This document shows positions 59,271-60,212 of a DNA stretch of 64,000 bases, piece after piece. Source of the stretch: Chitinophagaceae bacterium. Lineage in GTDB: Bacteria; Bacteroidota; Bacteroidia; Chitinophagales; UBA10324. Made by a program: the position numbers and the translations under genes. The notes beneath the pieces were generated by a model. The model was not told where the DNA came from. It was given only the letters and a program-made list of their open reading frames with translations, and did not search any database. Location of the stretch: contig JADKFU010000005.1 in NCBI GenBank assembly GCA_016717285.1, forward strand, positions 1,735,319 to 1,799,318, given 5' to 3'. How positions within the stretch are numbered: position 1 is the stretch's first letter; every line of letters starts with the position of its first letter.

Positions 59271-60212
59271 TTCTTTTTTTTAATGTGGTTTTTTTTTCCC
59301 CCCAACACGGGGTTTGTTTTTTTTTTTTTTTTTTCACAAAAAAAAAAAAACCCCCCCTCTTTAAAAAAAGACCCCCCCCCCAAACCTTTTTTTTTGTTAA
59401 GAAAAGAAGAGGGGGGCGCCCCGGGGAGAAATTTAATTAGTTATTGGGGTTTGAAAAATAAACAAAAAAAAAAGAAAAATTTTTAAAAAACCAAGGTAGA
59501 ATTTTGAGTCCAAATTAATTAAACATCCATTGTTTTTTTTTATTTTTGTAATAAAAAAAAAAAAAAATTTTTTAAAATTTTTATTATTTTAAAAAAAAAA
59601 AAAAAAAAAAAAGGGGGCCCCTTCCAAAAAAAAAAAAAAATTTAAAAAAAAAAAAAAAAAAGGGGGAGAAAGGGGGGGGTGCCCTAAATTTACCAAAGAA
59701 AAAAAAGAGGATGAAAAAAAAAATTTTTTTAATTAATTTTTTTTTTTTTTCTCCTTTTTTTTTTTTTTTTTTTTTTTTTTTTTTTTTTTTTTTTTTTTTT
59801 TTCAAAAAAAAAAAAAAAAAAAAAAAAAAAAAAAAAAAAAAATCTTTTCCCCCAAATTCCCCAAGGCCCAGGGGTTTCTTCCCCGCCCGCCCCCGCTAAT
59901 AAATTTATTTAAAAGAGGCTCCCCCAAAAGGAATCCCCCCCCCCCCCCCCGAGAAAAAAAAGAAAAAGAAAAAAGGAAAAAGGAAAAAAAAAAAAAAAAA
60001 AAAAAAAAGAAAGAAAGGGTTTTTGGTTTTTTTTGAGAATTTTTTTTTTTTTTCCCCCCCCTTTCTTTTTTTTCCCCCCCCGCGGATTTCCCGGTGCCCC
60101 CCCCCCGGGCAAAAAAACCCAAAAAAAAAAGGGGGGGGGGGGGGGGTGGGGCCCCGGGGAAATAATTTTTTTTTTTTTAAAAAAAAAAAATAAAAAATCC
60201 CCCCGGTTTTTT
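59271..60212. other. Anomalous homopolymer-run block 2 (non-coding, probably a technical artefact)
   Basis: About 940 nt composed almost only of mononucleotide runs of all four bases, including T48-C-A39 at 59755..59842. Located between two convergent 3' ends. Confidence 0.9.

Follow-up and report, generated by a model that had tools for sequence, protein, structure and literature searches.

Two blocks of homopolymer runs in a 64,000-nucleotide stretch of Chitinophagaceae DNA (the window) are not biological sequence, and the larger of them, block 2, stands in for real sequence. We consider it very probable that both are computational artefacts of Nanopore metagenome assembly and polishing, and that neither existed as DNA in the cell. 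Artefacts of this kind are already known. What is new is where this one lies: block 2 sits between directly repeated, predicted Xer sites at a chromosomal dif locus, and the preliminary description of this DNA had missed both the dif locus and the repeated sites around the block.

Two run-dense blocks and the same-species sequence beneath them

Scanning the whole 64 kb in 100-nt windows, with a threshold of more than 45% of bases in runs of at least 4, returned exactly two blocks (28508..28863 and 59239..60266), thereby recovering both of the run-dominated blocks that had been described from the letters, with about 70% of bases in such runs against 8% elsewhere. Comparison with same-species contigs refined block 1 to 28557..28836 (280 nt) and block 2 to 59266..60208 (943 nt), the boundaries of the latter being the first mismatch to contig L002 on the left and to contig L001 on the right; the earlier coordinates for block 2, 59271..60212, are off by at most 5 nt. 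Neither block is assigned a strand. Block 1 is G/C-rich (GC 73%); runs of at least 4 take up 70.4% of its bases, and none is longer than C19. In block 2, where GC is 30%, such runs account for 68.5% of the bases, runs average 3.66 nt, and the longest are T48 followed by A39. Over the remaining 62.8 kb of the window the corresponding share is 8.3%, runs average 1.42 nt and reach at most 9, and GC stands at 40%. Across 846 kb of other contigs, related and unrelated, the longest homopolymer is 11 nt, and a single marginal 100-nt window passes the run-density threshold. The run-dense blocks are confirmed, far beyond chance.

Block 2 begins sharply at about 59266, includes runs of T18, A13, C10, A22, T48, A39, C16, A25 and G16, and gives way to ordinary sequence again at about 60209. 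Its binned profile is irregular toward the centre, where the T48/A39 pair stands alone, and the idea of run length growing inward from two anchors was dropped for that irregularity. The block had been called run-only; it is certainly dominated by runs, but the wording was too strong, as ordinary-looking islands are present, at 59487..59532 and 59843..59930 (for example ACCAAGGTAGAATTTTGAGTCCAAATTAATTAAACATCCATTG). These islands may be better-preserved pieces of the true sequence, and they have no match in any fetched locus. Block 2 shows no repeat-unit structure, BLAST of the two blocks gave chance matches only, both elsewhere in the window and in 135 loci, and neither Rfam families nor tRNAs scored above threshold in the window or in a relative's spacer.

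The decisive comparison is with an independent assembly of the same species, GCA_049645525.1, whose short-read contigs L001, L002 and L134 were found by exact-protein look-up of the flanking genes and are 98.8-99.5% identical to the window, essentially without indels. Block 1 is wholly absent from this assembly: L134 1-4646 corresponds to window 23918-28556 and L134 4646-4792 to window 28837-28983, joining 28556 straight to 28837 and leaving a true spacer of 157 nt. At block 2, L002 and L001 match the window at 99.4-99.5% identity up to the block boundaries and continue beyond them as ordinary sequence, L002 for 129 nt past the left boundary and L001 for 52 nt past the right, after which each contig ends. 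Block 2 replaces real sequence. The expectation that removing a block would leave a normal spacer therefore holds for block 1, where deletion yields the 157 nt of the independent assembly, and fails for block 2, because ordinary same-species sequence, at least 129 nt and 52 nt of it, sits inside the two edges. Exact-protein look-up and cluster members gave no same-species contig across block 2, the contigs of GCA_049645525.1 stopping inside the region. Outside the blocks, the window is of Illumina grade: its alignment to L001 is gapless over 1897 nt, and that to L134 has a single gap in 4646 nt.

Could the runs nevertheless exist in the cell, as a hypervariable tract or as a low-complexity insertion specific to the strain? 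The two assemblies do represent different strains, with 0.5-1.2% divergence, but the edges of block 2 displace ordinary sequence that is present in the same species, and the block has neither a repeat unit nor homologues. Runs of T48, A39, A25, C19, G18 and G16 are packed together here, where about 900 kb of comparable genomes reach 9-11 at most, and the identical kind of sequence has been documented as a product of polishing (PMC7500977). Natural simple-sequence and contingency tracts offer no closer match, since neither position nor repeat structure is conserved within the species. We regard real DNA as an exceedingly improbable explanation, and the preliminary reading of the blocks as artefact rather than biology stands.

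The gene annotation agrees with this reading. Block 2 lies, as had been described, between two convergent 3' ends, those of a TPR-repeat protein gene on the left (57921..59090, plus strand; MBK9732960.1) and an EVE-domain protein gene on the right (60352..60765, minus strand; MBK9732961.1), with a hairpin and T-run at 59115..59132. No gene is annotated across either block, because the flanking proteins carry consecutive accession numbers; the open reading frames within block 2 had already been dismissed as products of composition, and the consecutive TPR and EVE accessions, with no CDS between them, bear this out.

Two smaller observations concern block 1. Its GC content of 73% contrasts with 40% for the genome, and it lies inside a plain 157-nt spacer; it may represent a real insertion of 280 nt peculiar to the strain or be invented throughout. 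The corresponding spacer in an 82%-identical relative (L130) measures 196 nt and is too diverged for alignment. Illumina contig breaks near block 1 were considered as a sign of heterogeneity and set aside as uninformative, that assembly being fragmented everywhere.

A predicted dif locus and its satellite sites around block 2

Thirteen nucleotides before block 2 begins lies a predicted chromosomal dif site, site A (59225..59252, minus strand), composed of the XerC arm GTTGCCTATAA, the 6-nt centre TTAATA and the XerD arm TTATGTTAAGT. Dif predictions for Bacteroidetes are available from Kono et al. 2011 and its supplement (PMC3025954), and site A agrees with the predicted dif of Pedobacter heparinus at 22 of 28 positions, the last 21 being identical, and closely resembles those of Chitinophaga pinensis, Cytophaga hutchinsonii and Flavobacterium johnsoniae. 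By our own count it also agrees at 22 of 28 positions with the E. coli dif, GGTGCGCATAATGTATATTATGTTAAAT (sequence in PMC3025954). With up to 3 mismatches allowed, the 64-kb window has no other match. At least 120 metagenome contigs, drawn from many habitats, carry the 25-mer TTAACATAATATTWATTATAGGCAA without mismatch, and among the matches listed there is one copy per contig, with flanks unrelated between contigs; a search for the dif motif in 2.9 million viral contigs gave 0 matches. That the motif might be a genome-wide REP or MITE was rejected on the same grounds, namely one copy per contig with unrelated flanks among the matches listed.

GC skew switches at the site as well. In the window it is +0.105 in the 5 kb to the left of site A and -0.104 on the right, and among the matches listed, skew changes sign at the motif, plus to minus, in 16 of the 24 metagenome loci that offer at least 2 kb on either side, and in the reverse direction in 1 (Wilcoxon p 2.5e-5). 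Given the 11-6-11 layout, the matches to other dif sites and this skew switch, site A is assigned as the predicted chromosomal dif site. Like established XerC/XerD dif sites, it has 11-6-11 geometry, occurs once per contig, lies between convergent genes and coincides with a plus-to-minus skew switch; it differs from them in being known here from sequence, with a single-copy count that covers the 64-kb window and the listed metagenome contigs. The cumulative GC-skew maximum of the window falls elsewhere, at 18-19 kb (0.96) and not at dif (0.75), in a region where local skew reaches +0.22 to +0.28 (16-18 kb); this maximum probably reflects gene-strand effects.

Site A is accompanied by further dif-like sites. 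Site B (60215..60247, minus strand) points the same way as site A and shares its XerC arm exactly; its centre is long, about 11 nt, and its XerD arm is degenerate. Site C (60282..60309, plus strand) has a 7-nt centre and the opposite orientation to B. A distance of 990 nt separates sites A and B, which form a direct repeat. As block 2 ends 6 nt before site B, the block takes up nearly all of the space between two directly repeated, predicted Xer sites. Between the TPR gene and site A stands an intact, bidirectional terminator-like hairpin (59103..59149) consisting of A8, a stem-loop and T6; its minus-strand version was flagged by a terminator scan, and it is identical in L002.

In L002 the real sequence also has an inverted site, A', which lies some 135 nt rightward of site A; the dif sites of this contig fall within 2053-2221. 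Sites A and A' are predicted to fold together as a forked hairpin in which the centres remain unpaired between paired arms (z -6.9), and sites B and C likewise form a predicted forked hairpin, the single-stranded DNA of 60209-60316 folding at -17 kcal/mol (z -5.5); the z values for the forked hairpins of true sequence beside dif are -6.9, -4.5 and -5.5. Four Chitinophagales species retain the A-A' module, in which 12 pairs are compensatory; L003, a contig that has a single Xer site in a 204-nt spacer, lacks it. In L005, a relative with a hybrid assembly, the spacer is 723 nt, with about 520 nt between the homologous sites (7306-7480 and 7822-7853), and includes a long-centre site homologous to site B. 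The satellite sites around dif have centres of 6, 7 and 10-11 nt, and two short-read contigs, L002 and L004, both stop at the same inverted dif-like site. Taken together, the motifs and predicted folds identify the real locus as a variable array of putative dif-like sites with forked hairpins.

Such an array is reminiscent of IMEX and their folded attP sites, as in CTX-phi of Vibrio and in the Bacteroidales microvirus proviruses at dif-like sites (Krupovic and Forterre 2011, PMC3091885), and of the dif modules of Acinetobacter plasmids, all of which place extra dif-like sites beside dif. As in IMEX and dif modules, the sites here have longer centres and degenerate XerD arms, the content between them differs among relatives, and a segment bounded by dif and a dif-like site is present in some relatives and absent from others. 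As in the attP of CTX-phi, the inverted pairs here are predicted to fold into forked hairpins whose stems rebuild XerC and XerD arms. Unlike IMEX, the units here measure about 0.1-1 kb, have no recognisable phage or cargo gene in relatives, and in the window have had their interior destroyed by the artefact; their mobility is putative, suggested by species comparison.

What the lost segment contained can be glimpsed at its right end. On the reverse strand of L001 1898-1940 (window about 60157-60200) there is a possible gene start, ATGAAAAAAAATGGTATTCACT, with the translation MKKNGIH..., reading leftward into the destroyed region, and the segment lost under block 2 may encode a small protein. 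A separate oddity concerns contig L003 (CAZGBP010000074.1), which is titled 'uncultured Bifidobacteriaceae bacterium' and encodes a TPR protein 83% identical to that of the window, in TPR-dif-EVE order and with a Bacteroidota dif; either the label of the bin or the binning of the contig looks wrong.

Origin of the blocks

How does such sequence come to be in an assembly? The window's proteins correspond to MBK9732939.1 (IPO83_16935), MBK9732940.1 (488 aa), MBK9732960.1 and MBK9732961.1, all from one Chitinophagaceae MAG contig; MBK9732939.1, encoded to the left of block 1, is identical to the window protein except for the start codon. The IPO83 series of locus tags and accessions is one that we take to be that of the activated-sludge MAGs of Singleton et al. 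2021. Judging from this locus-tag series, the IPO83 MAG would have been made by the pipeline described in PMC8012365, in line with the earlier suggestion of a long-read assembly with incomplete polishing. In that pipeline, R9.4.1 Nanopore reads were basecalled with Guppy 2.2.3 flip-flop, assembled with Canu 1.8 (corMinCoverage=0, corOutCoverage=all), and polished with Racon, twice with Medaka 0.6.5 and then with Racon using Illumina reads, with --include-unpolished (PMC8012365).

A direct precedent comes from the same family of tools. Courtine et al. 2020 (GigaScience, PMC7500977) found that Canu/Racon/Medaka polishing yields homopolymer stretches without read support and attributed them to polishing. 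Their case resembles ours in that an insert of about the right size and aberrant composition appears where the draft had lost a segment, and in that single-base errors near the breakpoint grade into continuous runs, as at the edges of block 2. It differs in being a fungal isolate genome with an insert of about 10 kb, additions of about 15 nt and mainly A/T composition, whereas here a metagenome MAG carries blocks of 0.28 and 0.94 kb that include long G and C runs and whose flanks were left clean by the final Illumina polish.

The edges of block 2 retain a trace of what they replaced. Set against 2000 shuffles of the true sequence, the alignment score of the left edge (129 nt) has a z of 3.4, with 1 shuffle equal, and that of the right edge (52 nt) a z of 4.75, with 0 shuffles equal. 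Without gaps, the right edge is 56% identical to the true sequence, and the register of the left edge holds to 2-3 nt across its 129 nt. At the right edge, true CATATCGAAGAAACAATTTATAAA is rendered as TTTAAAAAAAAAAAATAAAAAA and true CCTCCGCTG as CCCCCCGG. The edges are a degraded, in-register copy of the true sequence, and block 2 is therefore a coarse, length-preserving smear rather than a base-by-base stutter. A stutter in which each true base is expanded to a run was rejected directly, as run-length-compressed alignment does no better than ungapped alignment and register is preserved. A plain position-dependent majority filter was rejected too, raising identity at the right edge from 56% to 73% and reaching only about 47% at the left; at the left edge G and C runs are retained or expanded, unlike in a majority smear.

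We suggest the following sequence of events. The Canu draft would have misrepresented the reads at both places, with a segment dropped or the population heterogeneous there. The polishers would then have written an insert without a proper multiple alignment of reads, leaving something of about the right size with a composition smeared into homopolymer runs, and short Illumina reads, which would no longer map to the insert, could not have repaired it. At block 2, the segment that failed may have been a small element, flanked by an Xer site at either end and variable in what it contains, the trigger plausibly being insertion/excision polymorphism or long hairpins. That the draft represented the excised form is countered by the state of the sites: one intact Xer site would be expected, yet A and B are both intact in the window. 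For block 1 a variable-element trigger is unsupported, because its spacer is structure-poor and lacks an Xer site. The preliminary description had proposed a systematic cause, and two blocks of the same kind do point to one.

Junk already present in the raw reads offers a different route to the same result. A stalled or noisy Nanopore stretch would have been called as homopolymers by the flip-flop basecaller, kept through Canu via a thin tiling path, and then have been irremovable by polishing. Canu was indeed set to retain parts of reads that had not been corrected, polishing was run with --include-unpolished, and block 1, a pure insertion with no same-species counterpart, is a better fit to extra junk than to a restored segment. 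On the other side, register with the true sequence is kept over 52-129 nt at the edges of block 2, as fits a consensus of real reads and not noise; the stutter model does no better than the length-preserving one; and the precedent assigns such stretches to polishing (PMC7500977). Raw-read junk carried through Canu is a live alternative, especially for block 1, even if we hold it to be rather improbable as an account of the blocks.

The preliminary description had instead blamed the template, proposing that hairpin-rich terminator spacers break sequencing or basecalling, in which case blocks should track convergent terminator-rich spacers. Both blocks do lie between convergent genes, and for block 2 the hairpin part of the proposal has merit, the true sequence beside dif being predicted to form the very stable forked hairpins noted above. 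It fails at block 1, whose true 157-nt spacer has no terminator-like site and folds like its shuffles (z -0.42). Moreover, the terminator at 59103..59149 was read perfectly, and hairpins homologous to those beside dif were read cleanly in the hybrid assembly of L005. As a general mechanism, hairpin failure seems to us quite unlikely, and we retain an assembly and polishing artefact as the preferred reading of both blocks.

A further step can be offered only tentatively, as something possible but short of probable: that the sludge population was polymorphic for a Xer-dependent element of about 1 kb at dif, that this polymorphism caused the failure at block 2, and that the folded-dif modules of many Bacteroidota are miniature elements exploiting Xer, or accessory structures of dif, of a widespread class that has yet to be described.

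Consequences for assemblies and for other dif loci

The flagged sequence is without biological meaning, and its value is that of a data-quality warning: a public, high-quality long-read MAG carries invented sequence on the kilobase scale between clean flanks. To gene callers, language models and repeat finders such junk will look real, and poly-Lys/Phe/Gly/Pro open reading frames have already resulted here. A simple run-density filter detects these blocks cheaply. In this window the artefact erased the most interesting non-coding locus, predicted dif with its satellite Xer sites, and collections of long-read MAGs made in the same way may systematically lose variable, repeat-bounded loci. The by-products of the analysis are the block filter itself, the identification of the putative dif locus under block 2, and a lead on small folded-dif modules in Bacteroidota.

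Dif loci may be prone to such losses in other data. Among the matches listed (L010-L129), the motif lies within 300 nt of the end of the locus in 37 of 120 dif loci, against about 19 expected, an excess suggesting that assemblies often break at dif, owing to repeated Xer sites or variable inserts.

The lead on folded modules comes from the same metagenome loci. The dif spacer that was examined has no Rfam family. Of 99 distinct metagenome contexts, at least 14 have a module of about 100 nt, which follows the dif motif at a distance of 30-60 nt; its carriers are L026, L042, L049, L072, L076, L092, L098, L100, L101 and L121, among others. In the module, GCAAATTGCG/CGCAAATTGC forms the outer stem, a small GC hairpin varies, and a long hairpin has an invariant stem (TTAACATAAAATC/GATTTTATGTTAA) that corresponds to a folded XerD arm; 13 covarying pairs are found in 11 sequences.
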